A stretch of 33,732 nt of DNA from a virus (IMGVR_UViG_3300044670_001884:1-33732), one strand, 5' to 3'. Shown: positions 3,566 through 30,756, counted from the stretch's first letter. Program-made: numbers and translations. Notes: generated from the sequence alone by a model not told the origin.

Positions 3566-4081
3566 TTAGGTTCCTCCGCCTTGCGCGGTCGGTAATCGTG
3601 TTATTGGTGGCGGGAATTGCTTTGATCGTACTGTCAAGTCGTTTCGGTTCTGTAGCTGAACCGCTGTTGGGCCCGCGTGGTCGATGATCGTTGCGTCGAG
3701 TTGTTTGGGCAAATTGAAGATGTTTTGCCCGTTTGCCAGTTTGTCTAGCAACGTCCACCACTTTTGCTGCGACGCTTCGGCGTTTGCCGGTATGGATTCG
3801 CCGCGTCGCTCGTATAGGCGAATGATCGCAAGCCCGCAAACAAGGTCTGCGAGATACGCTTTGTTGACGCCTGTAAGCGTCGATAGGTCGTCCACAGTGT
3901 ATTGGCCGCCCTGAATTAAGGCGGCTTGAACTTGTCCCGATGCTCCGTCGAGAGCGGCCAAAACCGACGGGTGTGTAGCAATAGCGCCACGGGATAGGTG
4001 CTCGCGATTATCGGTCGCAAGATCACCCACCCAATCTATGTCGTAGCGTGCTGCTAAATCATTGCCGTCGGCGTAAGCCAT
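3566..4081 (-). CDS. Mu gp36-like (DUF1320) head-tail adaptor (171 aa)
   Basis: MAYA..NDL..RY start, ALDGASGQV...Y, LVCGLAIIRLYERR, and a final LLDKLANG helix; lies just downstream of the capsid gene. Confidence 0.75.
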   Translation of the reverse strand: MAYADGNDLAARYDIDWVGDLATDNREHLSRGAIATHPSVLAALDGASGQVQAALIQGGQYTVDDLSTLTGVNKAYLADLVCGLAIIRLYERRGESIPANAEASQQKWWTLLDKLANGQNIFNLPKQLDATIIDHAGPTAVQLQNRNDLTVRSKQFPPPITRLPTAQGGGT

Positions 4082-4088
4082 AATTCAC

Positions 4089-5132
4089 CTACGGTTGAAC
4101 GCAATTAGTGAATCGGAACGCGGAAGCTGGTGCCGTTGCAACAACGTCGAAGTCGTCGACGACGTTACCGACGGTGCGGCGATTATCTTCATCGTCTTTG
4201 GTGTAAACGGTCATGTCCTCCTGAACGAACAAGTGTACGCTCGAGAAAGATGGTCCACCGGATTCGGCGACGAGGCTGCCGGGTCGCGCGAGTAGGTATG
4301 CTTGCACCGGATCGCATAGGAAGCCGCTTGCAAGCGTCGCGCCACGCTTGCTGCTAACCTTGACCGCATCCTCTACAACGATAGGAATACCATACAAATT
4401 GTCGGGTAGACCGTACTCGCCCCATTTTCCTACTTCGCCCTTAACTTGGCTGTAGGCGTCCGGGCTGCTCTTGATGTGGTCCACAATCTCTTGCGACTCC
4501 GCCATTGCGTGCGCTGCGTGTGGACTTAGAACCAACTGCAAGTCCTTTCGGCGAACGACCGAAAGCGTTGCAATCATCACTTTTTCGACCGCAAAGGCAA
4601 GCGAGCGTTTGATGTCCTGTCTTGCGACGGTCGATTGATCCCACGTGCCGGTGTTTCCGGGGATAGAAACTACGTCGCTCGAGTGATCGGTTGCCCAAGT
4701 TCCGGCAGCTTGCAGCAAGCCGTGAACTTGTTGCGTGCGAGCCGTCATTGCCTGCTGCGCTTTGATGCGAGCGTGCGACTCGACGATGTTCCAGTCCGCT
4801 TGCTCCGCACTTTTTCGACCGATAGTAAAGTCGAAGTTGTAACGCTCGGTCTGGTAATCAGCGAACGTAAACGACTCTGTGCCGTTGTTTCGCTCGGGTC
4901 GTGGCGAACCGTCCGGCCATACGAACTCGGCTAGATCGGAGCTCAAAACACGCGCCGCTTCTTCAGGCGTGATTTTTAGATAGTAACCGCTCGATTTGTT
5001 GACGTTGCTTAGCTGGATATAGCTGTTTAACGCAAAATCGTCTGGGTTACGTGAAAATTCAGTAATAAGGCGTCCCGACGCATCGAGATCCTTTACGAAG
5101 GTGTTATTACCGCCGGGATAAGCGTATGCCAT
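4089..5132 (-). CDS. Major capsid protein (HK97 fold, 347 aa)
   Basis: Size and position after protease and cement genes; LVLSP..A...LYGIPIVVED is typical of HK97-fold P/A domains; AGGA RBS. Confidence 0.85.
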   Translation of the reverse strand: MAYAYPGGNNTFVKDLDASGRLITEFSRNPDDFALNSYIQLSNVNKSSGYYLKITPEEAARVLSSDLAEFVWPDGSPRPERNNGTESFTFADYQTERYNFDFTIGRKSAEQADWNIVESHARIKAQQAMTARTQQVHGLLQAAGTWATDHSSDVVSIPGNTGTWDQSTVARQDIKRSLAFAVEKVMIATLSVVRRKDLQLVLSPHAAHAMAESQEIVDHIKSSPDAYSQVKGEVGKWGEYGLPDNLYGIPIVVEDAVKVSSKRGATLASGFLCDPVQAYLLARPGSLVAESGGPSFSSVHLFVQEDMTVYTKDDEDNRRTVGNVVDDFDVVATAPASAFRFTNCVQP

Positions 5133-5627: not shown

Positions 5628-6137
5628 CTATTCTGATAGCTCGGTTTTCGCTTGCGATACTGCCTCTTGATAAGAAAGTCGTTTTCCGGCTTTGATTCCA
5701 GCGTTTACTAGATCAAGAGCTCTGTCTGCAACTTTTGCCGCAAATTTATCGCTGTTTACGTCGCCTGCGGCGAGAGTGCCGTCGTACCCGAGTGGGATCA
5801 TCGGCGAAGCTGGTGCCGACGCTGCTGCGTAATGCTGGATAAGCTCTACTCGCTTTTCAAACTCGTCGTTATCCATTTCTGAGCCGTTTGCATACAAGCA
5901 CTCGTCCATCTCGTTTTTGAGATTGACGGCTGAGTATTGGTGCGCGAGGTGAGTCAAACGCTCCTTTCGCTCTGCGTCGATTGCGTTCTGGCGTAGCTGC
6001 ACAACTTCGTGCTGCGTGGCTGCGTACATCTGCGCTTGCTCGGTTAGCAAAGAGTCGTTGTGCTTTTTGAGCTCGTTTAGCTCGGATCGCATTTGCTGGT
6101 TTTCAGCGGTTAAGGCTGCATACTGGTCGCGTCGCAT
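5628..6137 (-). CDS. Putative internally initiated scaffold (Mu Z-like, 169 aa)
   Basis: In-frame ATG at 6137 with GAGGA 7 nt upstream, at the start of the coiled-coil region. Confidence 0.5.
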   Translation of the reverse strand: MRRDQYAALTAENQQMRSELNELKKHNDSLLTEQAQMYAATQHEVVQLRQNAIDAERKERLTHLAHQYSAVNLKNEMDECLYANGSEMDNDEFEKRVELIQHYAAASAPASPMIPLGYDGTLAAGDVNSDKFAAKVADRALDLVNAGIKAGKRLSYQEAVSQAKTELSE

Positions 6138-7661
6138 AGAATTGTCCTCTGCGGTAGTGGAATAACGGTGATAGCCCTTAGTGGCTCCGAATTGTGCTGG
6201 TGGTGCTGCGGCGGCGTCTTGCGCTCCCGGTCCTGCGAGTATGCGAGCCAAAATACCCGGCTTCTTTTCTTCTGAGCCGCCTCCGCCTCCGCCCATCCCC
6301 TGAATTTTGTTCGCCACGGCGTCGACTGCCATATCCGAGCCAATCTCTTTTGCGGATTGCGTTAGTCCCTTTTTTGCGCCGCCACGTGCTGCCGCGCCGC
6401 CCGCCGTCCGTGCTGCTGTGCCTCCTGCTGCTCTCGCGGCTGTGCCTGCTGCAACTCGTCCGGCTGCCGCTAACGCCGGTGCGACGTTTCGATCAACGCC
6501 TTTTCGCATTGCTGAACCGGCTTGGTTGTTTAGCATGTTGTTCGCGTGGATCCCCTGCATCGCGGTCGTCAGCCCCATCTGACCTACGCCGTTTTGCTCG
6601 ATGGGCATTGGTGCATCTTCGACGTCCTCCTGCACGTACTCCTCCTCCATTTCGCCGCCTTCCATCATCGGGTCGCCCATCATCGGGTCGGGCTCCGCCA
6701 TCGGTGGCTCCGGCATCCCGCCCGCCATTGGATCATCCATAGGCATATCCCCGAGCTCATCTTGGCCGGTGTTGACGGGCTGTTCGTCTCCAATCATTGC
6801 GGCGGCGTTGCTAATCGTCTGCCATTCCTCGGTGCTCATTAAAGCGTTGAGCACTTCGCGAATCATGTCTTGGTCGACGGGGGTACTGCCGTACATATCT
6901 GATTTGCCTTTTTTTGCTGTTTTTAGTCGTGTATTAGAGCCGCCCGGAAACGACGCTATCGCTGGTGTCGCGTCGTATCGCTCGACGGTTATCGCTTCGG
7001 AGTCTGAATCGGCGGCATACTGCGCGGTGGTCGGAAGTGGCAATCGCGGTGCTTCCGACAACGCGGCGATGGGGTCGATATACCTACGACCGTTAGCTTT
7101 CAACTGCAACACTTCGACCGAACGATTTGGCCTGTCGCGCAACTGTTCGGTTTTGTCGTTACGCTGCCATTCGTTCGCAAAAATGCCCCATCTTGGGTTC
7201 TTTCTTCCGACCATTCCGAGCCTGTATGGTCCGACGAAACCAAGGTTTTTTGGTGGATCTGGGTCGCGATACGGTGGTGGAAGCGTGTGTTTGTCGACTA
7301 ACGCGGTGTACGCATCGGTGTCTTGTATTCTGTGATTGTTTTCGCGAACGATCTTTGTTAATTCGCTCAAATCGTAGTTTGTGATTTGCTCGGAGCCGTC
7401 TGGCCCGTAATTAACTTTTTCGTGCTCCATAAAAAACGGTCGCGGCTCCGTCGGCGAGTATTGCTCGGCTCCGAAATACTGAGCCGCTCGAGCGTACATC
7501 TCGTTGCCGCGAGCGTTGTCCCACGCTTGCCATATTACGCTGTTTCGTTGCCCCGGATCCGGTAATACCGACGCAAGTGCATAATGCGACCGCACGATAA
7601 AATCCTCTTCCGATTCATTCGCTTGCGGAACTGGCATTTGTGGCTGTACTGCTGTAACCAT
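5628..7661 (-). CDS. Prohead protease/scaffold (Mu I-like), 677 aa, with a long low-complexity middle
   Basis: N-terminal domain with candidate catalytic His (LVDKHT) and Ser (PNRSVEV...IAALSEAPRLP), C-terminal coiled coil, and canonical position before cement and capsid genes. Confidence 0.75.
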   Translation of the reverse strand: MVTAVQPQMPVPQANESEEDFIVRSHYALASVLPDPGQRNSVIWQAWDNARGNEMYARAAQYFGAEQYSPTEPRPFFMEHEKVNYGPDGSEQITNYDLSELTKIVRENNHRIQDTDAYTALVDKHTLPPPYRDPDPPKNLGFVGPYRLGMVGRKNPRWGIFANEWQRNDKTEQLRDRPNRSVEVLQLKANGRRYIDPIAALSEAPRLPLPTTAQYAADSDSEAITVERYDATPAIASFPGGSNTRLKTAKKGKSDMYGSTPVDQDMIREVLNALMSTEEWQTISNAAAMIGDEQPVNTGQDELGDMPMDDPMAGGMPEPPMAEPDPMMGDPMMEGGEMEEEYVQEDVEDAPMPIEQNGVGQMGLTTAMQGIHANNMLNNQAGSAMRKGVDRNVAPALAAAGRVAAGTAARAAGGTAARTAGGAAARGGAKKGLTQSAKEIGSDMAVDAVANKIQGMGGGGGGSEEKKPGILARILAGPGAQDAAAAPPAQFGATKGYHRYSTTAEDNSMRRDQYAALTAENQQMRSELNELKKHNDSLLTEQAQMYAATQHEVVQLRQNAIDAERKERLTHLAHQYSAVNLKNEMDECLYANGSEMDNDEFEKRVELIQHYAAASAPASPMIPLGYDGTLAAGDVNSDKFAAKVADRALDLVNAGIKAGKRLSYQEAVSQAKTELSE

Positions 7662-7701
7662 TTTGTGGTTTTAACCCTTTTTTTCGATTCATTGCAAGCT
7701 A

Positions 7702-7995
7702 TTACAAATCAATACCGTAATCAGCGCCGGGTTCGCGAGCCTCGGCGTCTGCAAAATAGATTGATAGCGTGCCCCGTATCTTTTCGTGTGCCGTCATCGT
7801 CGCCCATTTTTTCGGATCGCCGTATTCCGGTTTGTAGTGCTCAAAACTAGCAAAATCATTTACCGAATCGGCTAACTGTTCGTCGTTGCTGTACCAACTG
7901 CCATCGCCCATTAACACTAAGCAATCGCCGTTTGAGGTGTGTATTTTTGCGAGCGGTAGTATTTCCGCAATCATGTCGCTTGGCTCGGCTTTCAT
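7702..7995 (-). CDS. Small acidic hypothetical protein (97 aa from ATG 7995); candidate peptidase partner or immunity protein
   Basis: ATG 7995 overlaps the upstream TGA (ATGA) and has GAGGA upstream; the track's longer start overlaps the peptidase gene. Confidence 0.65.
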   Translation of the reverse strand: MKAEPSDMIAEILPLAKIHTSNGDCLVLMGDGSWYSNDEQLADSVNDFASFEHYKPEYGDPKKWATMTAHEKIRGTLSIYFADAEAREPGADYGIDL

Positions 7996-10841: not shown

Positions 10842-13800
10842 TTAACTAGCCGCCGAATACAAAAGTTTACTGCCCCTCGGTGTTTCTTCTTCGAATGTTC
10901 CAATGTTGTGTGCCGATTTTACGTTTTCGTAACCGAAAGCTACAAACACGTCCGCCGATACCGGCGTCGAGCCCGCTGAACCCATATCCGTAATGTCTTG
11001 AAATATGATTCCGTCATGCCCTTCCTGCTCGGCATACTCCGCCCACTCTCGCGTCGACATAGCCATTTTAATTTCAAATATGTCCTCTACTAAGTCTGAG
11101 GCTGGACCCCATCCCGCCGCCATATCAATTACTTTTGCTAAGCCATAGGGGTAATTCCAGTCGGCATTATCAAGGGCTTCTAAAAACTCTTTGTATTCGT
11201 GAGAATTTTCTATTTCTTCGTCGGTGAAATAATTTTCCGATAAAACTTCCCGAAAGTAACCGTCAAGGTCATCCGCTAGTTCGGCGGTCATGCCGTCGTA
11301 GCTCCCGTAAAGCTGTTCGGCAACAAATGGAACCTGCAAAAGTTCTTGAGCGTCGAGGGATCGAACGCTTGGCGCCACTGGTATTTCGTGCCAGTTACTC
11401 CTTCCGCCCTCGACGACTAACGGGTTGTTGATTCTGAATACAAGAGGGTAAACGCCGCGCGTGCCAATTCTTGCATCTATACCGGATTCAGAAATCCATT
11501 GATTCCATCTCACAATCAACTCATCTTCCGAAACCATCGGAATTAGCTTGTCTCTGTTTGCTAATAGTGCGAGGTCTGGTACATCTTTCGAGGATGCTCT
11601 GACGACTGCATATCGCGTCATTCCTTTTTCCGGCGAGTAAAATTGCAAAAGTTGATATTTATGGCTGTTCGCAAGCGAGGAGGCTATATCTTCTACACTT
11701 GTAGCTAACACGGGTGTAATGTCATCGGTGTACCTTCCACCTGTGTATGAAGCGGCAACGTCAACGTTTGTGGACCCATACACGTGTCCTTCAACGTCGC
11801 TACCTGCCATTTCTCCGAATCCGCCGTACGATGTTCCGTGAAATATAATGAGCGGTAGGCCCTCTTCGTCGACTGCTTTGTTATTGCCTGCCCATCGGTG
11901 ATATTCTGGATTGCTTGCTACTTTTAGTTGCATTTCCTCTAGCTGGTTTCTGGCAGCCTTTGTTAATAGCTCTGTTCTTCGCTCGTCGGTTTCGCTTCTC
12001 CACTGGCGATTCTCTTCGGCGGATAGACTGTAATCTCTCGCTTGCTGGTAGAGGTCATTGATTACCCTTTTGTCATTGCTGCTTAAAGCACCCGACTCTG
12101 GAAACAACTTTGCGGCTTCATCTAGTTCCGCTGCTAACGCTAAGGCGTCATTAGGGTCGTACCGCAAGGCGGCCCGCTGCACCCGTGATGCTGCGTTTAC
12201 CATTCTTTCGTACGCCTGCCTGCCACTTTCGTCGCCGTAACCAAAGTTTGCTTCTCCATAAACCTTTTTCTCTACGTTCAGTTTGTGTTGATCGTAAATT
12301 TGCAGGTTGTACTTGTAGTCTGGGATCAGTTTTTCTTGTTCAAATGGAATTTTGTCCCACGGCATGATGCCCGCCATTAGTGCTCTGTCACGTAGAACGT
12401 CGAGTGGGCTGCGTTGGTCGACCAATGACTTGCTGATTGGTCCGCGTAGGATTTCATACTTTGTTTTTTTCGGAAGGCCGTTTTCGTCTCTTTCAAAGAA
12501 ATGTCCGTATAAGGCGTAAACGACTTGCGGTTTCCCGTCTGCATCTGTTTTTTCTGGGTCGAAACCAACCTCCTCCTCGGTTAAACCTTCGTATTCTTTC
12601 CTGACTTCATTTTCTAAGAAATTTTGTGTCTGCCTTAATGTGTCGTATAAATTAACTGCATCTACCTGTGTCCGATTTCGGTGCAACTCTGCACTTCCCT
12701 CGAGACGTGTTTTTTCTTTGGATAGGTCATCTAATTCTTTGCGATCATCGGATCCCATCTTTTGAACCTTTCCGATTGCTTCTCTTGCCTCCCTCACTCG
12801 CTGCTTTATGTGCGTGTTAGAAGTGAATACGGGATACTGCCTCTCATACAGTGAGCGGTACTTGTATTCGGTAGCGACGTACGGCTGTATTTTGCTTTTC
12901 GGTATGCGGTGCACCTGTATGTCGTCGAAGTCTAGTGGTGAACTTTTTGCTGCTTGCTCCCAGTTAAAAAAATGTTCTGCTGCTTGTTTGTTCTGTAAAC
13001 GTTCTTGCCCTTCTTCTAGCGGTTCTTTCTCGTAGGCAAGTTTGTGCCGATTGATATGGTATTGCCTCTGTTTGTGTGCGTTATAACTCAACCAATACCG
13101 CAAATTCTTTTTCTCGATCAAATTAAATCCGGCTGGATCTTGGTCTTGTAGGTTATCTTCGCTTAGGTAGGTAGCGGCGTTAGGTGCCTGAGTAACGTGA
13201 TAGTAGTATTCGTCGTTTTCTTCGTCTGGGTGGTCGTTGTCGGCTCGGTGCACCCGCTTGTATAGTTCTTGCAATTTGCTGTCTCGAGGAAACAAATCTG
13301 GAACAATGTGCGAGCGGTCGAGATAATGCTTTTTATTTTCTTCGTCGTCGCTGCCCCAAGAATGTTCTCCGTCGAGGTGGTATTCGTAGTCGCTAATTAG
13401 TTTGGCCCCGTCGTTTTTTGAAATAGGCTGCTGCATGTACGATTTGTGGTCGAACTCTTTAAAATCTTCCGGCTGCACTACCGCTTCGTTTTGTGTGTAG
13501 TTCGGTATGCCTAATGTTTGCGTTGACCCGAACCCTTCTTCGAACTTCCTGCCCGTTGGTTTTGTGATCTCTAAGTTTTTGTAAGCCCTATCCGGCTCGG
13601 GTTCTGTTCCGTCGGTCAAATTGTCTGGATTGATCGGGTCGTCCTCTGCCGCGTATTGTGCTGAGTAATAATCTTCTTCGTCGTCTGATTCGCCGCCCAG
13701 CAACTCCTGACCTCTTTCGTTTAACCCTCTGTTTTTTTGCAATTCGATTACTTGACGTAGTGCATTGCTAGTTTTGTTGTTTCCTAGCAACTCGGCTGGA

Positions 13801-15395
13801 TCTATCTCAAACCCGGCAAGTAACAAATTGTCCTCGTTGTGATAAACGCCGGTTCTATACGCGGCAAACGCAAGTTGCGCCAATGTTTCATCATCGAGGT
13901 CTGGTATAAACTCGGCAAACAATTCTTTATCGTAGATATATCCGTCTAGGCTTTCGCCGTGCGGTAGGTCGTCGTCGTCGTACTGCTGGTATTCTGTAAC
14001 TAGATTGTCGAAAATTGCTTGTGCGTTTAGTAATCGCTTGTCGAGCACGCGATTAGCCGTTTCGCTTTCGTATTTGTCGATAGCCTTTTGTAGCGGCAGT
14101 ATTCTTTCGTAACCTTTCGGTACTGGCTTTGTGTCCGCCGGTGCTACTTGCTTTGCGAGCTCTTTTACGTCTCTCAACGTAATGTTTTTTAGATTTAGTG
14201 TGCCCTTTGAACGCGGCTCCCAAAACTTCAAGTTATCTTTGACGTGCTGGAACAAATAAAACGCATACGCTGGGTCAAGCTGATTTTTGTCGACCGTAAT
14301 GCCGATGCTTTCCTCGCGAAAATCTTTATGCGGCGTTCCTACTGTTTTTTCGCTGCCCTTTCGCGTAATCCAAAAATCAGCGTTCTCGTCATTGGTCTTG
14401 GCTGTAAACGCGGGCTGTGTTTGGCGTGTTGCCTTGACCTGTGACTCAATGTCGTCAAGCAATGCTCGAATATCATCGACGTGAAACGCTAGTTCTTCGC
14501 TTTCATTTTTAATTAGCCCATAAATTGCGTCGGTAAAATTTTTCCATTGACTCGGAGCGAACGTTTCCAGCGGATTTAATTTGTCCTTGGGCTCATGTTG
14601 CGAGTTGTACCACGCTAGTTCTTTTAGCTGCCCTGAGTCTAGAAAATCGCGTATATCTTCCGAATCGCTTTGTTCGTCGTAATGCCCGTGCTCGCTCATC
14701 AGCTTCCGCGCGTGCGTCCTCTGCCCCCAATCGTCGAGCTCAAATCCTTGCGGATCGTCCGATGGGCTGACTTTCGTCATCTTTCCCGTGTCGTACACGC
14801 GAATACGTCCGTCGGGATCGACTCCGTGCTGGACCGAATCGTTGATTCTCCACCCTGCATCCCACGCTTTTTGCATCTTCTCGCGATACTCTGCAATCTG
14901 CATCGGTGACAAGGATCCGCCGATTTCTAGCTTCGGGCGTATCGTAAAGCCCTTTTCGCCGTGTTCCTCAAATTGCTGGGGAAGGAATACGTCGTGCCCT
15001 TCGTTGTATGCTTGATTGTTAATTTCGGCCTGTCGTCTTGCGTCCGCGATTGCGTGCGTGTGGTGGCGGAAATTTTGCAGATTGTAGGGTACGACCGTCG
15101 TGACTTTTGCTACGTTCCCGTCGTGAGTGTCGTAAACAAGCCCGTCGTCGCCCTTACCGAGGAACGTCCCCTGTCCGTTTCTTAGAGTGTTTATCGCCGC
15201 GTTGCTCGGGTGCTCCGGCACGTCGGTGATTTGGTTTAGGTCATCGCTGAAATGCTTTACGCTGTCCTTCGGTAACGTAAAGGAGCCTGCTTCGGGATGG
15301 TGCAGGGTAGCGTTGTGCCCGTCGTGTTCCGTTACCGTAAAGTCGTACGTTCCGGTAATTTGTCGCTGGCCGTCGACGTTTTCGTATTTCGGCAC
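10842..15395 (-). CDS. Large polyvalent protein (>=1517 aa) with kinase-like, HsdS-TRD-like, central HxT ART-like and C-terminal ART-PolyVal-like domains; probably the C-terminal part of a frameshift fusion
   Basis: LGKGDDGLVY/VAKV/D/DTG kinase-like motifs; VDEEGLPLIIFHGT...VYPLVFRINNP...GHDGIIF...VAF..ENVKSAHNIGTF. The GTG start lacks a clear RBS and the frame is open upstream through the A9 run. Confidence 0.75.
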   Translation of the reverse strand: MPKYENVDGQRQITGTYDFTVTEHDGHNATLHHPEAGSFTLPKDSVKHFSDDLNQITDVPEHPSNAAINTLRNGQGTFLGKGDDGLVYDTHDGNVAKVTTVVPYNLQNFRHHTHAIADARRQAEINNQAYNEGHDVFLPQQFEEHGEKGFTIRPKLEIGGSLSPMQIAEYREKMQKAWDAGWRINDSVQHGVDPDGRIRVYDTGKMTKVSPSDDPQGFELDDWGQRTHARKLMSEHGHYDEQSDSEDIRDFLDSGQLKELAWYNSQHEPKDKLNPLETFAPSQWKNFTDAIYGLIKNESEELAFHVDDIRALLDDIESQVKATRQTQPAFTAKTNDENADFWITRKGSEKTVGTPHKDFREESIGITVDKNQLDPAYAFYLFQHVKDNLKFWEPRSKGTLNLKNITLRDVKELAKQVAPADTKPVPKGYERILPLQKAIDKYESETANRVLDKRLLNAQAIFDNLVTEYQQYDDDDLPHGESLDGYIYDKELFAEFIPDLDDETLAQLAFAAYRTGVYHNEDNLLLAGFEIDPAELLGNNKTSNALRQVIELQKNRGLNERGQELLGGESDDEEDYYSAQYAAEDDPINPDNLTDGTEPEPDRAYKNLEITKPTGRKFEEGFGSTQTLGIPNYTQNEAVVQPEDFKEFDHKSYMQQPISKNDGAKLISDYEYHLDGEHSWGSDDEENKKHYLDRSHIVPDLFPRDSKLQELYKRVHRADNDHPDEENDEYYYHVTQAPNAATYLSEDNLQDQDPAGFNLIEKKNLRYWLSYNAHKQRQYHINRHKLAYEKEPLEEGQERLQNKQAAEHFFNWEQAAKSSPLDFDDIQVHRIPKSKIQPYVATEYKYRSLYERQYPVFTSNTHIKQRVREAREAIGKVQKMGSDDRKELDDLSKEKTRLEGSAELHRNRTQVDAVNLYDTLRQTQNFLENEVRKEYEGLTEEEVGFDPEKTDADGKPQVVYALYGHFFERDENGLPKKTKYEILRGPISKSLVDQRSPLDVLRDRALMAGIMPWDKIPFEQEKLIPDYKYNLQIYDQHKLNVEKKVYGEANFGYGDESGRQAYERMVNAASRVQRAALRYDPNDALALAAELDEAAKLFPESGALSSNDKRVINDLYQQARDYSLSAEENRQWRSETDERRTELLTKAARNQLEEMQLKVASNPEYHRWAGNNKAVDEEGLPLIIFHGTSYGGFGEMAGSDVEGHVYGSTNVDVAASYTGGRYTDDITPVLATSVEDIASSLANSHKYQLLQFYSPEKGMTRYAVVRASSKDVPDLALLANRDKLIPMVSEDELIVRWNQWISESGIDARIGTRGVYPLVFRINNPLVVEGGRSNWHEIPVAPSVRSLDAQELLQVPFVAEQLYGSYDGMTAELADDLDGYFREVLSENYFTDEEIENSHEYKEFLEALDNADWNYPYGLAKVIDMAAGWGPASDLVEDIFEIKMAMSTREWAEYAEQEGHDGIIFQDITDMGSAGSTPVSADVFVAFGYENVKSAHNIGTFEEETPRGSKLLYSAAS

Positions 15396-15481
15396 TCCGA
15401 CGGTATCGCCGATGTTGTGCCCGATGCGTGTTGGTTGCGGGCCTCCCTGCCCGTCAATCGAATCATCTTGCCCGTACCTAT

Positions 15482-16846
15482 CTACTTTTTTTTTAAGTCT
15501 GTACTGTATCGCTCGACGGCTTCGGCGAACGTACTAAAAAGCGATTGCTGGTCGGGATGGTCGTTCATTCGATCAAACATTAGCTTTTGCTTGCCCTTTT
15601 CTTTTTCGTTCTCTAGCTTGAACTTCGTCGTTTTGCTTGCTTTCTTTCCTTCGCCGAACAGACCTAGTTGATCGCCCGATTTTGCGTCCTCGTTATCGAC
15701 TTTTTTGCTCGGCATTTCGATACCGGGTTTTTCCGATTTACCTTGTGCTTGTAGTCGGTCGACTTCTTTTTTTCCGTAACTTTTGCATTGCCGGTTGTAA
15801 TCTTCCTCGTCTTTGTAGTCCGAACGTTCGAGCGGAGTCATTTCGTTCCACGGCTTCATCCCAGCGGCTGCATATTGCCCCGCTTGGAATCTTCCTTTTA
15901 GCCTGCCTACTGCTGCGTCCGCAACCTTGTCGAGAATTTTGCCGCCCGCTCGCTTTGCAAGATTTAACCCGCTCGTTTTTGCGTACCCTTCGCCGAATCC
16001 TTTGCGAAAATCGCGAAACATACTCGGTTGCTCCGGTTCCGCCGGTAGATACCCGGTTTTTGCGAGCACGTCGCGTAAAGTTTGCTGTGCATTGCTTTGT
16101 GTAATTGCGAGACGCAACTGGTGCCCGTTTTCAATAGCCTCCGGGCTCGGTAGTCCGAGCATCTGCGCAAACTCTTGTAGTTGTTGCGGCGTCGCATCAA
16201 ACGCACCTGAAGCGACGATATGGCTGTCGAGCGTTGGATCCTGTCCTTGTAACTCGATTCCTGCTTGCGTCGTTTCGTATACTGGCGGGCTCGGTATGCG
16301 CTGGCCCGGTGGTGGTGGTGGCTTAACTATCTGTTGTTGCTTTTCCGCTTCCGGCTGCGGAGTTTGTTGCGGAGTGTCCTGCTTTTGTTTTTCGTTGCCC
16401 TGTTTTTGCTTCGGCTCGGATTGCTTTTCGATTTGCCCCGACCTTAGCAATAATTCCGCCCCATCTTTGCCCATTTGTTTTACGATGGTTTTATATTCAT
16501 CTTCACTAATAACCATCCTTTCTTTCGGCTTTGGTGATGCTGTTTGTGCGCTTTGTTGCTTGTTTTGGTTTTGCATCGCAGAACGCTCGGCTGACTGTTG
16601 TTTCAGCGGCTTCGTGCCGAACGTTGCCTGCATTTGCTTATCCAACTCGTCCAATGAGCTCGGGTCTGATGTTTTTGCAACTGGCTTTTGTTTTTGCGGA
16701 GTTTGAGCCTCTACCGCTTCCCTGAACGTCGTTTTTTTCTCTGGAACGGGTGGTGGTTGCTTTTTCGGCAACGGCTGTGGCTCTAGGCTGTAACCGTTGT
16801 CCACTTGTTTTCCAAAATCATCTAGCTGTTGGTAGGCTTGTCTCAT
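15482..16846 (-). CDS. Gln/Pro/Lys-rich, largely disordered protein in the MuF position (454 aa)
   Basis: ATGA overlap with the portal stop; low-complexity composition; several QxxLF/MF motifs near the C-terminus. Confidence 0.8.
   Translation of the reverse strand: MRQAYQQLDDFGKQVDNGYSLEPQPLPKKQPPPVPEKKTTFREAVEAQTPQKQKPVAKTSDPSSLDELDKQMQATFGTKPLKQQSAERSAMQNQNKQQSAQTASPKPKERMVISEDEYKTIVKQMGKDGAELLLRSGQIEKQSEPKQKQGNEKQKQDTPQQTPQPEAEKQQQIVKPPPPPGQRIPSPPVYETTQAGIELQGQDPTLDSHIVASGAFDATPQQLQEFAQMLGLPSPEAIENGHQLRLAITQSNAQQTLRDVLAKTGYLPAEPEQPSMFRDFRKGFGEGYAKTSGLNLAKRAGGKILDKVADAAVGRLKGRFQAGQYAAAGMKPWNEMTPLERSDYKDEEDYNRQCKSYGKKEVDRLQAQGKSEKPGIEMPSKKVDNEDAKSGDQLGLFGEGKKASKTTKFKLENEKEKGKQKLMFDRMNDHPDQQSLFSTFAEAVERYSTDLKKK
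15485..15494 (-). other. Candidate -1 frameshift or slippage site (A9G, containing A-AAA-AAG) immediately before a TAG stop
   Basis: TTA AAA AAA AAG TAG in frame 0; the -1 frame reads AAA AAA AAA GTA GAT AGG TAC... without a stop into 10842..15395. Confidence 0.65.
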
Positions 16847-18441
16847 AGGTAGGTTTCCACCCTGTTCTTAAACGCTCGTTTCATTGCGGCGCCGTTTGCG
16901 CTGTTTTGTTCGATTATCTGCCCCAAATCTATCGGTTTCGACGCTGGCACTCCCGCCGGTGGCATCGCGGCCATTTGCGATTCGACTTCCGGCATCCCCA
17001 TCGCGGCCTGCCCTGCTTGCATGAACGCCGGGTTTTGCAGAACTTCGTCGCTTGCATCTGGCATTGATACTCCAATGGTGTCGGCAACTTCGTCGGCCTT
17101 TATTTTCATTCCCATATCCCACGCCATTTTCATTGAAGCAAGCCGCCGATCACTGTCCGGTTCTTCGGTGCTGATTCGGAACTGCAAGCGAATGTTTGCG
17201 CTGCCGGGAAAGTTCCATAACTGCAACGGCCTTAGAAAATCGGTGGTAATTGTTTCTTCAAGGTTTACGCTGTCATACTGAACAATATCTGCGAGTGTCG
17301 CTAGGTGAGCGTCGGCAACTCCCGAACCTAAGCCGGTCGCTTCCGCTTCGCTGCTCAATACTTGCCCGAGAATAAATCGCTTTATCTTGTGGCCCCAATA
17401 CGTCCGAATCATGTCGATGGTCGTATTGATACCACCGAGCCCGGGTTCGATTAGCCTCGGAACGTAAAGCTCTTGGTCCTCGCCGGGCTGAATCGGTGCG
17501 AGAATAATCGTTCTTCCGCCTCCCATTGCTTCCTCGGCGGCTTTTTCCGTCGCCGCTTTTTGAGCCGGGCTACCTGCTTGGTACGGCCATATCTCTACGC
17601 CAAACGCTGCTCGGTCTAAATACTCGACTACTCTCTGCAAGCACTCAATCATCGCGTACCAATCCCAATAGATATAGTCGCGGATACCGACGCCGTTAAT
17701 TCGCCCCGCCATTTTCGGCTCGAAAAACGGCGCGTCCTCAATCATGTGTTTATGCACTACCGCCTGCCGACGTTCCCACTTGTCGAGCCAATAAACAAGC
17801 CCTTCCTCTGTTGGCTGCACTTTTTGCACGACTTCGCCCGTTGTCGGATCGAGGTAGTTTCTCGGTGCCGAATATGCGGTGCTAACCCTGATGCCGACTT
17901 GGCCGTTTACGTGCTTCAGCGTGCCGTCGTCGAATCGAAACTTTAGCTTGTCTCCGTTTCGCGGACTCCAACCGTTACAGCAAATTCGATTGATACCGCC
18001 GATCCGTTTATTTTCAAACGTCCCCAGCGTCATGTACCGCCCGTACCACAGCGCCTCGAGCAAGCACCGACGCATTTCTGTGAATCGCGGCGTTTCTTGC
18101 AAAATGTCCGTCATTGCCCTGACGAGCTCCTGCTGCTCGAAGCTGCTCGAGTCCTCTGGTTCAATCGACCAGTTTTGCAGGGCTACGGCTCGCTGCCGGG
18201 CGTGCAGGGATTCCATAATCCCGCAATCATTACGCATCCGATACGCATTTTCACGCGAGTCGGCGATTGCTTGATCGGCTGATAGGTAGGAATAGCTAAC
18301 TAATCCATACCTGCCGTTCACGCTGCTGACGTGAGGCAAAATCTCGCGGCTGAAATTGGGAGCTCCCGACGTTCCTGCCGCTGGATCTTTTGCTCGGCTG
18401 TATAGAAACTCGGCTGGTAACGCTGCGTCGTCGTTTTTCAT
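16843..18441 (-). CDS. Portal protein (DUF935 / Mu gp29-like, 532 aa)
   Basis: M.NDCGIMESLHARQRAV...WSIEP, LLEALWYG, YLDRAAFG, IKRFILGQVLSS....GLGS.VA..H, LEETITTDFLRPL..WNFPG are typical DUF935 segments. Confidence 0.85.
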   Translation of the reverse strand: MKNDDAALPAEFLYSRAKDPAAGTSGAPNFSREILPHVSSVNGRYGLVSYSYLSADQAIADSRENAYRMRNDCGIMESLHARQRAVALQNWSIEPEDSSSFEQQELVRAMTDILQETPRFTEMRRCLLEALWYGRYMTLGTFENKRIGGINRICCNGWSPRNGDKLKFRFDDGTLKHVNGQVGIRVSTAYSAPRNYLDPTTGEVVQKVQPTEEGLVYWLDKWERRQAVVHKHMIEDAPFFEPKMAGRINGVGIRDYIYWDWYAMIECLQRVVEYLDRAAFGVEIWPYQAGSPAQKAATEKAAEEAMGGGRTIILAPIQPGEDQELYVPRLIEPGLGGINTTIDMIRTYWGHKIKRFILGQVLSSEAEATGLGSGVADAHLATLADIVQYDSVNLEETITTDFLRPLQLWNFPGSANIRLQFRISTEEPDSDRRLASMKMAWDMGMKIKADEVADTIGVSMPDASDEVLQNPAFMQAGQAAMGMPEVESQMAAMPPAGVPASKPIDLGQIIEQNSANGAAMKRAFKNRVETYL

Positions 18442-22889: not shown

Positions 22890-25800
22890 TTACTGATCTC
22901 CAAAGTGTTTTTGCGTGTAGGTAATGATTAGGTTTTTAATTTTGTCCAACGACCACTCGAGCGAGTGTTCGTGTGGCAGTTTTTTGTGAAGAGTACGACT
23001 TACGGTTTCGGCTTGCTGGTCTGTCGGCTCGCTTTTTTTGGCGTCCCATCTGTTCATGACTTTTACGACGTCCTTCGTGCATCCACACGATTGGAAGAAC
23101 AATGGGTAATCCTTGGCAAACGCATCGCCCAACGGCAACGAACTTTCTACTTGTTTCGGGACGTCCCCACCGAGCCGGGCATTGCTAAAACCGCTGCCCG
23201 CTACGATCTGTGTTTTACTTGCTTCTAAATACGCTCGCAAATTTTCCTCTGCGGTTTGGCCGCCTTGCGCCCCGCAGCACGTAACCGTCGCTGAAACTAC
23301 GTTCCAATTTCCGAACTGTGATGGTCGATTGGGCAATACGCCGCAACCGCCTTGGTTTCCGTAAGTGTCGTTACAAAACGTATTGCTTCCGCCCAGATTG
23401 GTCGGCAACGTAATGCCCCCGAAGCTCGCTGGGGACCAAGCAAAACTCACTTCGCCGTTTACGCTCGGGCACGAACCGACTGCCGTGTTTACAGACATAG
23501 TAGCCGTCGCAGTAGCTTGCACCGATGCGCCAGTTCCTACGTTTCTCCACGTGGCTTCAACGCTCCACGTGCAATTTTCACCCCCTGTTATCACGACTGT
23601 AGCCAAGTCGATTCTAACGGTATCGTTGTTATCGTTCGTACCTGTCATGTCGGCGATAGTTAGCTCTACTCCGTACGCATCGCAGTCGCCGCTGCTGTAC
23701 TGGCAATCATCGCACGTAATACAATTACTCGGAGGGTCGGGAGTAGTCGCACACGGGTAGCTTACCGTTGTCGGGTCTCCCGGTGCTGGCGTTTGCGTCG
23801 GTGCTTCACCTGTGCAATCGCAGTTAGGCAAATCCTGCGGGCAAGTTTCGGTTTGGTTCCAGTAGCCTGTGTTTTCGTCGTAAACCCACGTACAGTTGTA
23901 GTCACTACACTCGGTGCAGATACAAATATCAATACACTGAGTTTCCCCCTGCACGTAATTACAAACGCTAATTGTGTCCTTGTATAAGCAGAGCTCATTG
24001 CCCGATGTTCCGGCTGACGTAACGACGTCAATTTGCTGTAAGACGGGATTCCACGTATACGCTGTTGGTAGAAAATCGCAAGGGAATCCGTAGTGCTGTT
24101 GCTGCGTAAATGTTAAACCGCAATTACCGGCTGCCGTTGCCTGCGTGACTGAAGTTAATTGGATTGGTTCGCCGAGCATCGCCGATTCGGTAGCAAAAAG
24201 CATATACAGATGACGGCCCGGGTCGAAAGACCCAACGTATTGCGTGCCTGCTTCTTTGCATACTGTCGATAACGCAAAAACAATTTTTGGTCGACATGTG
24301 TCGGTATACGAGTTACCAAATGCTGCTGGGTTCGTTCCTTCCCAATAATCGTTTAACGCAAAGTAATCGCCCTGTGCGCTGCCTTGACCCTGAAAATCCG
24401 CGCCCGTTGCGCTGTCGAGCAATTCAACAAGGATGTATCTCGCTATCTCGCCTTCTGGATCGCCGTAGTAGCTTTTCAGAACTTCAGCAATTACCCAACG
24501 AACGTCGCTTTGTGCTTCATTGTGCGGTGCGAGCGGTGAAGTTGCTCGAGTAGTGTTTTTTCTCGACCATCGTTCAAGAATGACACGCTCGCCGGAGTCC
24601 AGCGTAAGTGCGTAGGGATTCTCTGCGTCGACTGCCCAACAATTACCCTCTTCTGTAGTAGCGTCGCGTGCCTCCATCGGAAAGTCGCGATTGGGCGATT
24701 CCGATAAGTAAAAATCATCGAGCGTAAATGAGATTGGGTACGTTTCACCCGGCATAGAAGGAGCGGCTTTGATGCAGCCATTTAGCCCCATTGCCACTGT
24801 GCCCTCTATTCTGTTTACGCTTTGCGTGCAAGTTTCCGCTTCCCAACGGTTTTCTCCCGGCGGATTGTTGCAGCCGGTAGCCGGAGTACGGTAATGAGCC
24901 GTTCCGACCGATCCACCAAGTCCCGGCGGTGTAACCCCGGAACCTGTTAGGCAGTTTGTTATGTTTTGATCTGCTTCAAATACTGCGTCAGGGAATAGGT
25001 TAAACGGATCGTATACAGTTATTGGGCTGCCGCACGTGATAGGCTGGTCTGCGTCGTCTAGGATGTTTTCGCAATTTCTAAATTGCAGAACGTAAGCCGA
25101 CCATTGCCCAGACTGAATTGACCCGACTGCGTTTATAAGCCGAAACTGTATCCACGGTGCTCCCGAGCCACCCGGCGGCCCTGCCTCACCCTGCACGACG
25201 TACCAACCATCGTTTGACTGAAAGTACACCGACAACACTGAACCGGCTGGTATGGCTTGTCCGGCTGGTGCTACTAGGTTTACCGTAATCTGCTGCGGAT
25301 TGCCGTCGTAGGGAGTCTCTGATTTGTTCGGAGAAATGTTCCCCTGCCCCGATGACGCCCCTTGCTGGATCCCGCCGCTTCCGAGCGTGACTCTCGCGAG
25401 CTCTTGATTGTGACGGTATAGAGTCTGTGTCTGACTGATATTTACCTGTGGGATAACGCCAATCGGTACAGACTTGTGCGTGGTTGCGATACTCGGGTTG
25501 TCTCCGTCGTATCCGACCTTGATGTAGGTGTAGTCCGTGTACGGGCTCCGCATCAAAGACTGCGACGAATTAGAAGGAACTCCCGCGTGAGTTACGCAAA
25601 ACTGTTTTTGCTGCCACGATCTGTTTTCTTCCGATAGCGAGGTACACAACGCATCGAATCTTTGCTCGCTTCCGCTGTCTAAGTTGCCGCCGAGATACTC
25701 TAAATAGAACGTCGAGATTGTGTGAAATTTTGGTGTATCACCGCTGGCGTTCCCCGAAGTGCCGTCCTTTTTTTCCCACGAATTGTTGTCGTAATAGTCG

Positions 25801-26738
25801 TACAGTTTCCTCGCGTCGAAGCGATATTCTTGTGCTGTTGGTGCGACTGGATTGCCACCTGCTTCGCCGAGAATAATTGGAAATCCTGCGGCTCGCATCG
25901 AAGTGACTGCCGTATCAAAGTCCTGATCGGCGTTTGAGCGTGCATAAATAAGAATCTGATTTGCTACCGGATCGAACGCTATTCTTCGTCCGGTCGAAAA
26001 CGCGATATGATCGAGCGCGTAAGCTATAGATTGCTGTGTTGAGAAATACCCGGGGTCTGGGTAGAGAAACGTCGTATCGACCTCGCCGAAAGCTGTCACT
26101 TGTGTATCAACGTCGGATACTAACGCTGTTGCTACCTGTGCCCACGTTTTATTGGTGCTGCTCTTAACGTCAAGCGTCTCTGGGTCGAATGGAGTATGCA
26201 GTAGCCTGTATCTTGCATCGACTACTGGGCATAACCACAACTGACGCGGCTCGCCGGATCCTTCCGTCGTCACGTCAAGCTGTATCGGTGTTAATAAATC
26301 TACTGGGAACTGAGCGTTGCCACCATTCGGGCCCGTCATTTCAAGCGTTACGAGACTGGCTTGTGCCTGATCCGCTGGCGGCAATCCTCCCGTTCCATCC
26401 CACGACACACCCCAAGCTGTGTCGATCAACGCTCCGATATGTTCATGCGAAACTAAAAACAGACCACGGCCAAAACGCGAAGCGCCGTTTGGGTGCAGGT
26501 AGCAATTTATTCCACACTCCGGCAAGTCGGTAAAGTTCGGTGGACCCGCTATCACACCTGTCGAGTGATTTACAATCGCCTCGTAATTAAACTCTGGGTC
26601 CGTCGCCCAAGGAAGCTCGCTATTCTTCAGGCGGCGTGAAAGGTAATTGGCTACCTGCCCGTCAATATCGAGCACGATAGGAATATTACCGGCGGTTTCC
26701 CCCGATCCGGTTTGGAACTGTATGTTTACATCGGCCAT
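22890..26738 (-). CDS. Large tail tip/baseplate-like protein with a Cys-rich C-terminal half (~1282 aa from ATG 26738)
   Basis: Long ORF in the tail block; ATG 2 nt after the upstream stop; G/T/S/N/C-rich distal half. Function inferred from position and composition. Confidence 0.6.
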   Translation of the reverse strand: MADVNIQFQTGSGETAGNIPIVLDIDGQVANYLSRRLKNSELPWATDPEFNYEAIVNHSTGVIAGPPNFTDLPECGINCYLHPNGASRFGRGLFLVSHEHIGALIDTAWGVSWDGTGGLPPADQAQASLVTLEMTGPNGGNAQFPVDLLTPIQLDVTTEGSGEPRQLWLCPVVDARYRLLHTPFDPETLDVKSSTNKTWAQVATALVSDVDTQVTAFGEVDTTFLYPDPGYFSTQQSIAYALDHIAFSTGRRIAFDPVANQILIYARSNADQDFDTAVTSMRAAGFPIILGEAGGNPVAPTAQEYRFDARKLYDYYDNNSWEKKDGTSGNASGDTPKFHTISTFYLEYLGGNLDSGSEQRFDALCTSLSEENRSWQQKQFCVTHAGVPSNSSQSLMRSPYTDYTYIKVGYDGDNPSIATTHKSVPIGVIPQVNISQTQTLYRHNQELARVTLGSGGIQQGASSGQGNISPNKSETPYDGNPQQITVNLVAPAGQAIPAGSVLSVYFQSNDGWYVVQGEAGPPGGSGAPWIQFRLINAVGSIQSGQWSAYVLQFRNCENILDDADQPITCGSPITVYDPFNLFPDAVFEADQNITNCLTGSGVTPPGLGGSVGTAHYRTPATGCNNPPGENRWEAETCTQSVNRIEGTVAMGLNGCIKAAPSMPGETYPISFTLDDFYLSESPNRDFPMEARDATTEEGNCWAVDAENPYALTLDSGERVILERWSRKNTTRATSPLAPHNEAQSDVRWVIAEVLKSYYGDPEGEIARYILVELLDSATGADFQGQGSAQGDYFALNDYWEGTNPAAFGNSYTDTCRPKIVFALSTVCKEAGTQYVGSFDPGRHLYMLFATESAMLGEPIQLTSVTQATAAGNCGLTFTQQQHYGFPCDFLPTAYTWNPVLQQIDVVTSAGTSGNELCLYKDTISVCNYVQGETQCIDICICTECSDYNCTWVYDENTGYWNQTETCPQDLPNCDCTGEAPTQTPAPGDPTTVSYPCATTPDPPSNCITCDDCQYSSGDCDAYGVELTIADMTGTNDNNDTVRIDLATVVITGGENCTWSVEATWRNVGTGASVQATATATMSVNTAVGSCPSVNGEVSFAWSPASFGGITLPTNLGGSNTFCNDTYGNQGGCGVLPNRPSQFGNWNVVSATVTCCGAQGGQTAEENLRAYLEASKTQIVAGSGFSNARLGGDVPKQVESSLPLGDAFAKDYPLFFQSCGCTKDVVKVMNRWDAKKSEPTDQQAETVSRTLHKKLPHEHSLEWSLDKIKNLIITYTQKHFGDQ

Positions 26739-26740
26739 TT

Positions 26741-27280
26741 TTAGATTTCCAAGATGCCCCAATCAAACGGCGTATTAAACGTCATGCTTAACCCCATCAT
26801 TTGCGTCTGTCCGATTTGCGTAAAGCCCGGTGGGTCTGCGACTCGGATGGATAATTGCTCGCGTAGCAAAATCCGGGTTAATGCGGTTGCGTCGTCGGTA
26901 ATTGAAAGGTCGAAGTCGCCGTGCAACAACGCTCGTAGTATTTGCCACTTTCGCTCGAGCAATCCGTCGGACTGAGATAGCAACGCTTTGCTCGCTGTTC
27001 TCGGTGCGTCGCGGACCTGCCTCACCATTGGCGTAACAACGGTCGTTGCGTTTTCTGTCAGAGTGGTGTAGCCGCCGCCTGCGAACGTGGCTTCGACAAA
27101 CGCTCCGCCTCCCGGTGCGATTGTGCAGCACTCGCGACCAATCGGGAAATCTGGTGGAATCGGTTGGTCGAGAATAAAGCAATTAGCTTCTGTGTAAGCT
27201 GGTACTTTTTCGATTAGCCGGTCGCGCATAGTCGTCAAGACTTCCATCTGCGTCGTAAAGCGTCGTACGATATTAGCCAT
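26741..27280 (-). CDS. Tail terminator/completion-like protein (179 aa)
   Basis: N-terminal helix (VLTTMRDRLIEKV), alpha/beta core and a terminal beta strand (LSMTFNTPFDW) fit the size and layout of the lambda gpU-type class; TAATG coupling. Confidence 0.45.
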   Translation of the reverse strand: MANIVRRFTTQMEVLTTMRDRLIEKVPAYTEANCFILDQPIPPDFPIGRECCTIAPGGGAFVEATFAGGGYTTLTENATTVVTPMVRQVRDAPRTASKALLSQSDGLLERKWQILRALLHGDFDLSITDDATALTRILLREQLSIRVADPPGFTQIGQTQMMGLSMTFNTPFDWGILEI

Positions 27281-30149: not shown

Positions 30150-30425
30150 CGTTTTGCCGCTTCCCTGTTCATCTGCGATCTGTGCCTTTCGTATTGGCTA
30201 ATCGCTTCGTCGCGTGTGTCAGTATTCGCGAAAAACCACCCTTTTCCCTGCCCCCCACTCACCGCTGTAAGAGCTCCGAGCCTTACGATTTCTGCTTGCC
30301 TAAGCCTGCTTCGGGTGCTATTTAACCACAAACTGAACGCTAGGTCGTAGCGTTTTCTGATTAGATGACATAGGTCGCCTGCTCCGTACGTAGCGGCTAG
30401 GTCCGAAAACATTACGTTTTTTTTT
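30146..30425 (-). CDS. Post-frameshift (gpT-like) portion of the tail assembly chaperone
   Basis: -1 frame (KKNVMFSDLAATYG...) is open from the A9 run to the stop overlapping the next ATG; no convincing start or RBS of its own. Confidence 0.6.
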
Positions 30426-30756
30426 GAAGCCGAAAGCACCACAAGTCAAACGCATCGACTAATCCAATGAGCTCCGCGATTGTCATACCGTTTCCCGTGC
30501 TTTCATCGAGACGCTGTATTCCGAACGCTCGAGACGCCGCATTGGCAACAATTTCCATAGAAACTGGATCATTCTGCAACGCTTCATCAAGGTGTCGTGG
30601 CAGATAGTCGGGATCGGTTTTCAATGCCATCGCTATTTGCATCGGATCCGCGTGGCGGGTTCCCTGATGCGTTTCGTAGCTGAATATGCACCGCTGCAAG
30701 TGTTCCCGACGTGCTCTTCGCTCGAGCCTTCTTTTTCGCCACCGCTGAAAAAACAT
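30412..30756 (-). CDS. Tail assembly chaperone (gpG-like, 114 aa from ATG 30756)
   Basis: Small helical ORF ending QKKT* on a slippery run upstream of the tape-measure-like gene; TAATATG coupling. Confidence 0.6.
   Translation of the reverse strand: MFFQRWRKRRLERRARREHLQRCIFSYETHQGTRHADPMQIAMALKTDPDYLPRHLDEALQNDPVSMEIVANAASRAFGIQRLDESTGNGMTIAELIGLVDAFDLWCFRLQKKT
30417..30425 (-). other. -1 frameshift slippery site (A9)
   Basis: CTT CAA AAA AAA ACG TAA in frame 0; TCA AAA AAA AAC GTA in the -1 frame. Confidence 0.7.

Follow-up and report, generated by a model that had tools for sequence, protein, structure and literature searches.

The viral sequence IMGVR_UViG_3300044670_001884:1-33732 (hereafter the window, meaning the whole 33,732-nucleotide (nt) stretch) is one 33.7-kb contig of a tailed phage with close relatives of 43-45 kb. 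On its minus strand, a gene of 454 amino acids (aa) directly behind a Mu-type portal gene (gene A) ends in a run of nine adenines (A9) followed by G-TAG, from which the -1 frame leads without a stop into a large downstream gene (gene B). As judged from the compared genomes, this junction is very probably a conserved recoding site of some kind that fuses A and B. We consider it a likely programmed -1 ribosomal frameshift site (probability about 0.55), by which one head-region gene would yield both the 454-aa A and a 2001-aa A-B protein.

The A9 junction and its conservation

Gene A ends in TTA AAA AAA AAG TAG. From K-K-K-V-D-R-Y onward, the -1 frame meets no stop up to and past GTG 15395, the annotated start of B, and 454 plus 1547 residues make up the 2001-aa fusion, just as an earlier prediction made from the sequence of the window (the original prediction) had read it. 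The peptide YGQDDSIDGQGGPQPTR of this frame is encoded upstream of any start codon. Only two runs of at least nine adenines occur on the coding strand of the window, namely this one and one at a predicted tail-chaperone site, and the 20-nt junction motif is found once in the window and in none of 100 shuffles. Two remarks on the space between A and B also hold: the 16 nt upstream of GTG 15395 contain only an adjacent GGA in place of a clear ribosome-binding site, and the 86 nt between the two genes form the largest of the intergenic gaps from 33698 down to 7992, where all others measure -31 to +9 nt.

For the comparison with relatives, duplicates were merged, leaving five lineages with the shift site (the window, L001, L003, L008, and L035). 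Twelve distant kinase loci (29-39% identity, no comparable junction) and L040, which does not reach the junction, were excluded from the counts. A run of nine or ten adenines followed by G-TAG-ATA-GGT-AC is present in 3/6 viral contigs and 5/9 close metagenome contigs that span the junction, and the heptamer and stop, whose conservation the original prediction had proposed to check, are found in all five lineages. The run is A9 in four of them and A10 in L008, where the extra A derives from the preceding CAA codon and the -1 relation is unchanged. Identity to the window amounts to 57-90% for the C-termini of A and 54-93% for the kinase regions of B (L035 lies outside those alignments). The five lineages agree in all seven junction codons, against 16/132 other codons with an invariant amino acid (Fisher p 1.4e-6, a value to be read with the relatedness of the lineages and the dual coding of the Val codon in mind). 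By this measure, synonymous change is suppressed at the shift site. The KKK C-terminus was found in 12/12 protein homologues of A in a first set; among 16 close matches from a profile search, 13 end in KKK, two (P0028 and P0038) have KKK followed by a tail, and one ends in KR.

On the side of B, residues R23, G25, H26, and G29 are invariant and precede V34, the residue of the annotated GTG, and this codon is GTT in L001. A conserved start at 15395 is thus ruled out, in line with the original prediction, and no start codon column is common to the five shift lineages. The first start codon of L001 is not reached until codon 92, inside a conserved domain, and its -1 frame has a stop one codon ahead of KKK. 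Since no start codon is conserved, gene callers place the start of B at scattered positions in 12 of the 14 homologues with this N-terminus, the other two sharing an MPEQPG start (P0021 and P0022, which lack the N-terminus, were excluded). B might nevertheless be a separate gene, translated from an internal or non-canonical codon through coupling or reinitiation, with the A-rich end of A being kept for protein reasons, i.e., the KKK tail. One lineage does translate B separately (TGA-GGAT-ATG, see below) and a TTG lies at a comparable place in L008, but the missing start column and the arrangement in L001 speak against this explanation, as do the codon-level invariance, which protein constraint does not account for, and the fact that every candidate start has the conserved -1-frame V-D-R-Y ahead of it. 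We rate it as improbable.

The site is a homopolymer and was judged from contigs, in which rare variants could be hidden. Among eight sequencing runs compared, contigs of X1 (the possible source), X3, X4, X5, and X8 bridge the A-run gap-free; X2 and X15 do not span the junction, and the flank in X10 is too short to count. The contigs of X5 and X8 differ from the window at 27/2001 and 16/889 letters, respectively, and represent strains that are 1.3-1.8% different. An assembly or sequencing error that splits one true open reading frame (ORF) is scarcely conceivable given gap-free contigs in four runs besides the possible source and the same break in four divergent lineages, and the continuous A10 frame that the original prediction had named as its signature appears in none of these contigs. 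Phase variation, by which the run in the phage DNA would toggle between nine and ten and switch the fusion on in a subpopulation, is very unlikely as well. Homopolymers are sites of DNA slippage (PMC3711429), L008 carries A10, contigs may conceal rare variants, and P0028 and P0038 continue beyond KKK. The extra A of L008 has the origin given above, however, what follows KKK in P0028 and P0038 is not V-D-R-Y, no contig or locus covering the junction has the fused state, and a weak search of 1764 candidates returned no longer A homologue fused in frame, another outcome the original prediction had considered.

A lineage without the shift provides a natural control. In L005, L006, L023, and L036-L039, the run is missing, A stops at TGA, and the ATG of B follows four bases on (TGA-GGAT-ATG) behind GGTGAGG. 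This arrangement accounts for 3/6 viral contigs and 4/9 close metagenome contigs spanning the junction. The lineage retains the tail A9 site and lacks the excess of 3' RNA structure described below. It is nested among the shift lineages in the trees of the portal (98/100), the A C-terminus (99/100), and the kinase (98/100); the terminase tree places it as the sister of L007, and a protein with the N-terminus of the L007 A ends in KKK. Because of this nesting and the KKK end of an L007-type A, the shift is likely ancestral and would have been replaced once by an own start of B. Given this replacement, the A-B junction appears to be a control point, and the fusion is, on the evidence of this lineage, not obligatory for the production of B.

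Proposed frameshifting or slippage and the possible fate of the two products

In the proposed frameshift, tandem Lys-tRNAs would slip on A_AAA_AAA or A_AAA_AAG beside the stop, and structured RNA 3' of the shift site may assist the slip. The 75 nt after the stop have fold z-scores of -0.9 to -3.6 in the shift lineages versus +1.0 to +1.6 in the two loci without the shift that were folded, and the excess of 3' structure across shift lineages relative to shuffles has a combined p of 0.003-0.005. Of the pairing between two downstream CGGGC copies and GCCCG pointed out in the original prediction, part stands: both copies pair with GCCCG in predicted folds, but only in the group of the window, L001, and L003, and not significantly in the window.

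The same fusion would arise by programmed transcriptional slippage, if the host RNA polymerase added one A and the A10 mRNA were read normally. Translation of A8 or A11 mRNAs would stop at the +1-frame TAG two codons on. Slippage and frameshifting would give identical products with an identical role, and both mechanisms may act together. Several features suit slippage. The run has at least nine A in 5/5 head sites and exactly nine at the tail-chaperone site in 7/7 loci (window 30412-30442; L025-L030), including the lineage without the head site. The codon before KKK always ends in A despite residue changes (TTA, GTA, CAA), and the +1-frame stop (15480-15478) is invariant in 5/5 lineages via the codons GAT and AGG, which encode 35% of Asp and 10% of Arg, respectively. 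Slippage is efficient in vivo on runs of nine A or T, and Thermus dnaX makes use of it (PMC5009743, PMC3711429). In contrast, the excess 3' RNA structure, being lost together with the site, fits a ribosomal stimulator, as this RNA is not yet made when the polymerase would slip; a conserved 5' stem is absent (z -2.0 to +0.6), and the two overlapping heptamers likewise explain a run of nine. We regard slippage as possible but rather doubtful at the head junction. The tail-chaperone site, whose heptamer is A_AAA_AAA and whose 3' folds have z-scores of -0.2 to -3.3, is itself a candidate for slippage-driven G/GT expression.

In-frame A8-A9 runs encoding KKK also occur in the homologue of the 949-aa gene that follows B (L006 at 18487 and 18763; L059 at 2054 and 2330), with no sign of recoding. 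Tolerated A9 runs would count against slippage, but the bare heptamer A_AAA_AAG is tolerated in the same gene and the observation does not discriminate between the two. Since both are tolerated in this neighboring gene of relatives, the context seems to matter under either mechanism.

The original prediction had pictured an abundant short carrier and a rare enzyme-bearing long form. The long form does bear enzyme-like domains, whereas its rarity is not supported: a nine-A cassette gave 40% shifting in an Escherichia coli reporter (PMC3711429), so A-B need not be rare, and with an own ATG for B in the nested lineage the fusion is dispensable.

Following the frameshift, A and A-B may both enter the prohead via Tyr-containing tags. 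The motif (S/T)-F-x-x-A-V-x-x-Y and shorter Y-(A/S)-A forms are present in A, B, the 949-aa gene, and the putative protease gene, with one match in the other 18 proteins scanned. The pattern was written after seeing the window and then tried on relatives; in relatives not used for the pattern, it comprises 17/255 Tyr in cargo ORFs versus 0/426 in other ORFs (p 4e-8, which is optimistic, the relatives being related to the window). We infer that the tags are targeting and protease sites. Cleavage in the prohead could take place after the last tag of A and at V-D-R-Y just past the shift, thereby freeing the enzymes for injection. The main purpose of the junction would likely be the dose of B relative to A rather than the sole entry of B into the head. 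The enzyme responsible may be the product of 5628-7661, likely a prohead protease/scaffold, with invariant H80, H125, S181, and E183 and a fold predicted only at low confidence (local distance difference test score, pLDDT, 45); its profile has no credible PDB match.

A number of points weigh against this account. The run always has at least nine A although the heptamer needs six, which suits polymerase slippage, and the invariant G is also accounted for by the Val of the Tyr motif. The 3' fold of the window itself is unremarkable (z -1.1; p 0.30), the strongest hairpins begin 15-31 nt downstream, and stems at 5-8 nt after the heptamer, the usual position of a -1 frameshift stimulator (PMC4066793), are not above shuffled controls (combined p 0.61). 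A stem starting 6 nt after the heptamer was good in chosen fold lengths and was rejected after failing the shuffle test over five lengths. Inspection by eye across the lineages gave no shared Shine-Dalgarno (SD)-like 5' stimulator upstream, an optional element that is present in dnaX and in about 56% of insertion sequence (IS) elements. As for the tags, their p-value is generous, the protease identity is only a lead (ESM lead Mu-like_Pro, 0.88), and B has no long Tyr tag in any of the loci scanned, including the lineage with a separate B. Piggy-backing on A can therefore not be required, since B is without a full tag even as a separate gene.

Encoded domains and genomic setting

Gene A matches no Pfam or PHROG family. 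Its C-terminal module is found in frame inside proteins of 1.2-3.5 kaa of distant relatives, 15 of the 17 scanned having Pfam domains (mostly LPD1/3/5 and InPase, also PBECR3 or RadC). The module is in no B homologue, and the kinase is in 0/28 distant module-bearing proteins. As the module sits in frame in large proteins, the A-B fusion would rebuild an architecture that others encode unbroken, with other downstream domains. One such distant protein, P0068, carries a 2H/Acb1-like domain as well, an indication of anti-defence cargo in the wider family.

By its predicted domains, B is a polyvalent-type cargo protein located among virion genes, with a kinase fold, a DUF6943-like module, and a predicted ADP-ribosyltransferase (ART) domain. 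The kinase domain is modelled by AlphaFold with a pLDDT of 85, and all 50 Foldseek PDB matches listed are kinase-fold (best E 7e-5); Pfam gives no match for the kinase of the window and no kinase family for the 17 members. The DUF6943-like module, which by eye presumably resembles a restriction specificity domain, is encoded in gene B of the window but in gene A of L008 (residues about 347-460), L035, and L006. Lying after the shift in the former and before its position in the latter, it would change copy class between lineages. The ART-PolyVal (PF18760) match in the window is weak (E 6e-6; 27.4 bits, below the cut-off of 31.2), while 6/8 relatives pass the cut-off, with the best stretch on a middle copy. 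At 1027 codons, the B frame of L031 (7998-11081) is shorter than in near-identical relatives.

Table 1. Coordinates of the junction elements, domains, and genes in the window
Feature	Position	Strand	Details
Gene A, 454 aa, short zero-frame product	15482..16846	-	mostly low-complexity; conserved C-terminal module, Tyr tag, and KKK at the end
Gene B frame, polyvalent-type cargo	10842..15494	-	1550 codons from the first K; annotated with 1517 aa from GTG
A9 run	15486..15494	-	overlapping A_AAA_AAA and A_AAA_AAG heptamers, phase right for a -1 shift
Heptamer A_AAA_AAG	15491-15485	-	last six A of the A9 run and the G after it
3' element G-TAG-ATA-GGT-AC	15474..15485	-	zero-frame stop 15484-15482, +1-frame stop 15480-15478, V-D-R-Y in the -1 frame; identical in 5/5 lineages
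Trans-frame linker, shift site to annotated GTG	15396..15485	-	codes for conserved R-x-G-H-x-x-G residues
Predicted 3' RNA structure, possible stimulator	15438..15474	-	CGGGC 15474-15470 or 15453-15449 with GCCCG 15442-15438
Tyr tag T-F-x-x-A-V-x-x-Y, end of gene A	15506..15532	-	putative capsid-targeting or protease site; half copy V-D-R-Y then in the -1 frame
Minimal protein-kinase-fold domain	14640..15260	-	G-loop FLGKGDDG, invariant K, D..Q, D-x-G-K; most of the C-lobe missing; alignment of 17
DUF6943-like module, 117 aa	14085..14435	-	ESM Atlas 0.96-0.97; BLAST E 1e-25 to 1e-31
ART-PolyVal-like C-terminal region of B	10845..12107	-	ends in a conserved (L/V/M)Y(S/Q/A)A motif
Mu-type portal gene, directly upstream of gene A	16843..18441	-	Portal_Mu E 6e-32
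Second cargo gene, 949 aa	7992..10841	-	two Tyr-tag-like motifs; HExxH motif near the C-terminus
Likely prohead protease/scaffold	5628..7661	-	position ahead of cement and capsid genes
Predicted tail-chaperone -1 shift, comparison site	30417..30425	-	A9 (CAA AAA AAA ACG)

The gene order on the minus strand is large terminase, a 326-aa gene, Mu-type portal, gene A, gene B, the 949-aa gene, a 97-aa gene, the likely protease/scaffold, a cement-like gene, and a likely major capsid gene. A and B hence lie between the portal and the cement/capsid genes, the head-cargo position assigned to them originally. The HExxH motif of the 949-aa gene is one that we take to be of the zincin type. The 330-nt gap after this gene contains the conserved 97-aa ORF (about 7702-7995, minus strand), which overlaps the stop of the HExxH gene and possibly encodes an immunity-like partner. 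Ahead of the protease gene, a promoter-like TAGCTTGCA followed by a TAAAA/TATAGGAT-like box (window about 7665-7700, minus strand) is conserved in L056-L060 just before 4001.

The runs holding the window are mostly estuary, mollusc, freshwater, and sediment metagenomes. Portal matches in metagenome-assembled genomes (MAGs) include one of 92% on a 44.7-kb contig of a Gammaproteobacteria MAG and one of 44% in a Planctomycetaceae MAG; the portal and protease domain had no match among 50,697 phage records. In three distant relatives (L010 9875-15787, L052 6051-13238, and L054 9920-13066), the portal is fused in frame to long extensions of 1048-2395 codons, that of L052 including the same kinase domain as gene B. 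Between portal and gene A, L005 (10063-10263) and L007 (about 4036-4225) carry an additional small ORF (about 65 aa) that has CxxC pairs and opens with a Tyr tag. In L004 and L005, of the lineage without the head shift, the 1290-aa tail gene (matching window 22890-26762) is split into two ORFs (about 449 and 810 codons) that overlap at an ATGA.

Comparison with known systems

Phage frameshifts have been reviewed for tail chaperones, capsid and tail-tube extensions, and Cro (PMC5009743), and nearly all annotated cases are tail chaperones (PRFect, PMC10885494). The titles and abstract openings searched contained no frameshift in a phage head-cargo or polyvalent gene, with most subscription papers and supplements lying outside that search and the cluster lists of PMC3711429 and PMC10885494 being places that could hold one. 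That a classic recoding signal is present here in a new gene class is well supported by comparative evidence. If true, recoding would be a means to set the copies of an injected enzyme per virion, and polyvalent-type proteins are routinely called with wrong starts, as in the 12/14 database homologues above. The family offers natural controls for ribosomal versus polymerase slippage and for the dosing model: in one lineage a start codon has taken the place of the shift, one module is found before or after the junction depending on the lineage, and the genome itself has a second A9 site.

The head junction shares the A_AAA_AAG heptamer and its phase with E. coli dnaX and the IS3 family, along with predicted structured RNA 3' of the site across lineages. 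It differs from them in its A9 run, the stop directly after it, the SD-like 5' element not seen, the unsupported stem at 5-8 nt, and its location in a head-cargo gene. Thermus thermophilus dnaX slippage likewise uses a run of nine with a nearby stop in the unproductive frame, but yields the shorter product, whereas slippage here would yield the longer one.

As in G/GT of phage lambda, a short zero-frame product and a C-terminally extended -1 product would set a ratio. The lambda products are not in the virion and their gene pair precedes the tape measure gene (PMC5009743), while the site described here lies between portal and protease and adds an enzyme-like extension of 1547 aa. It is also outside the tail module, following the portal gene, and the phage has its own predicted G/GT site (30417-30425). 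Frameshifts in virion genes by which some of the copies gain an extra domain are likewise known from T3/T7 gp10B, Lactobacillus A2, and Listeria A118/A500/PSA, with in-frame fusions in other phages. Those capsid and tube cases extend shell or tube proteins, mostly with immunoglobulin-like domains (PMC5009743), in contrast to a putative internal carrier extended by a multi-enzyme polyprotein.

B itself resembles the polyvalent proteins (Iyer et al. 2017, PMC5512222), which are also large, multidomain, and encoded among virion genes, with kinases described as C-lobe-truncated and ART-PolyVal-like domains; the module of A occurs in LPD/InPase proteins. Polyvalent proteins near virion genes were proposed to be packaged and injected, and the word "frameshift" appears 0 times in the main text of that paper (PMC5512222). 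Polyvalent/MuF fusions have been described as in-frame (MuF-VIP2, PMC7302621), whereas A-B has no MuF domain and its kinase has no Pfam match. The capsid-targeting sequences of T4 internal proteins and Alt are short tags on head-cargo proteins that the prohead protease removes (PMC5694885), a likeness in the sharing of a tag. Unlike the T4 tag, the one found here ends in Tyr, is also placed at C-termini and between domains, bears no sequence relation to it, and its cleavage is putative.

The analogy with retroviral Gag-Pol, where a structural part is extended by frameshifted enzymes that are released by a protease, leads us to a more tentative picture, which we hold to be possible rather than probable. 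In a Gag-Pol-like head strategy, frameshifting would extend an abundant tagged core protein by a kinase/ART polyprotein; the extended form would be packaged along with the core protein, and the prohead protease would cleave it at a Tyr site that lies four residues beyond the shift. Individual lineages could adjust the cargo dose by shifting modules from one side of the junction to the other or by swapping the frameshift for a coupled start, and both recoding sites of the family may run on A9 slippage.

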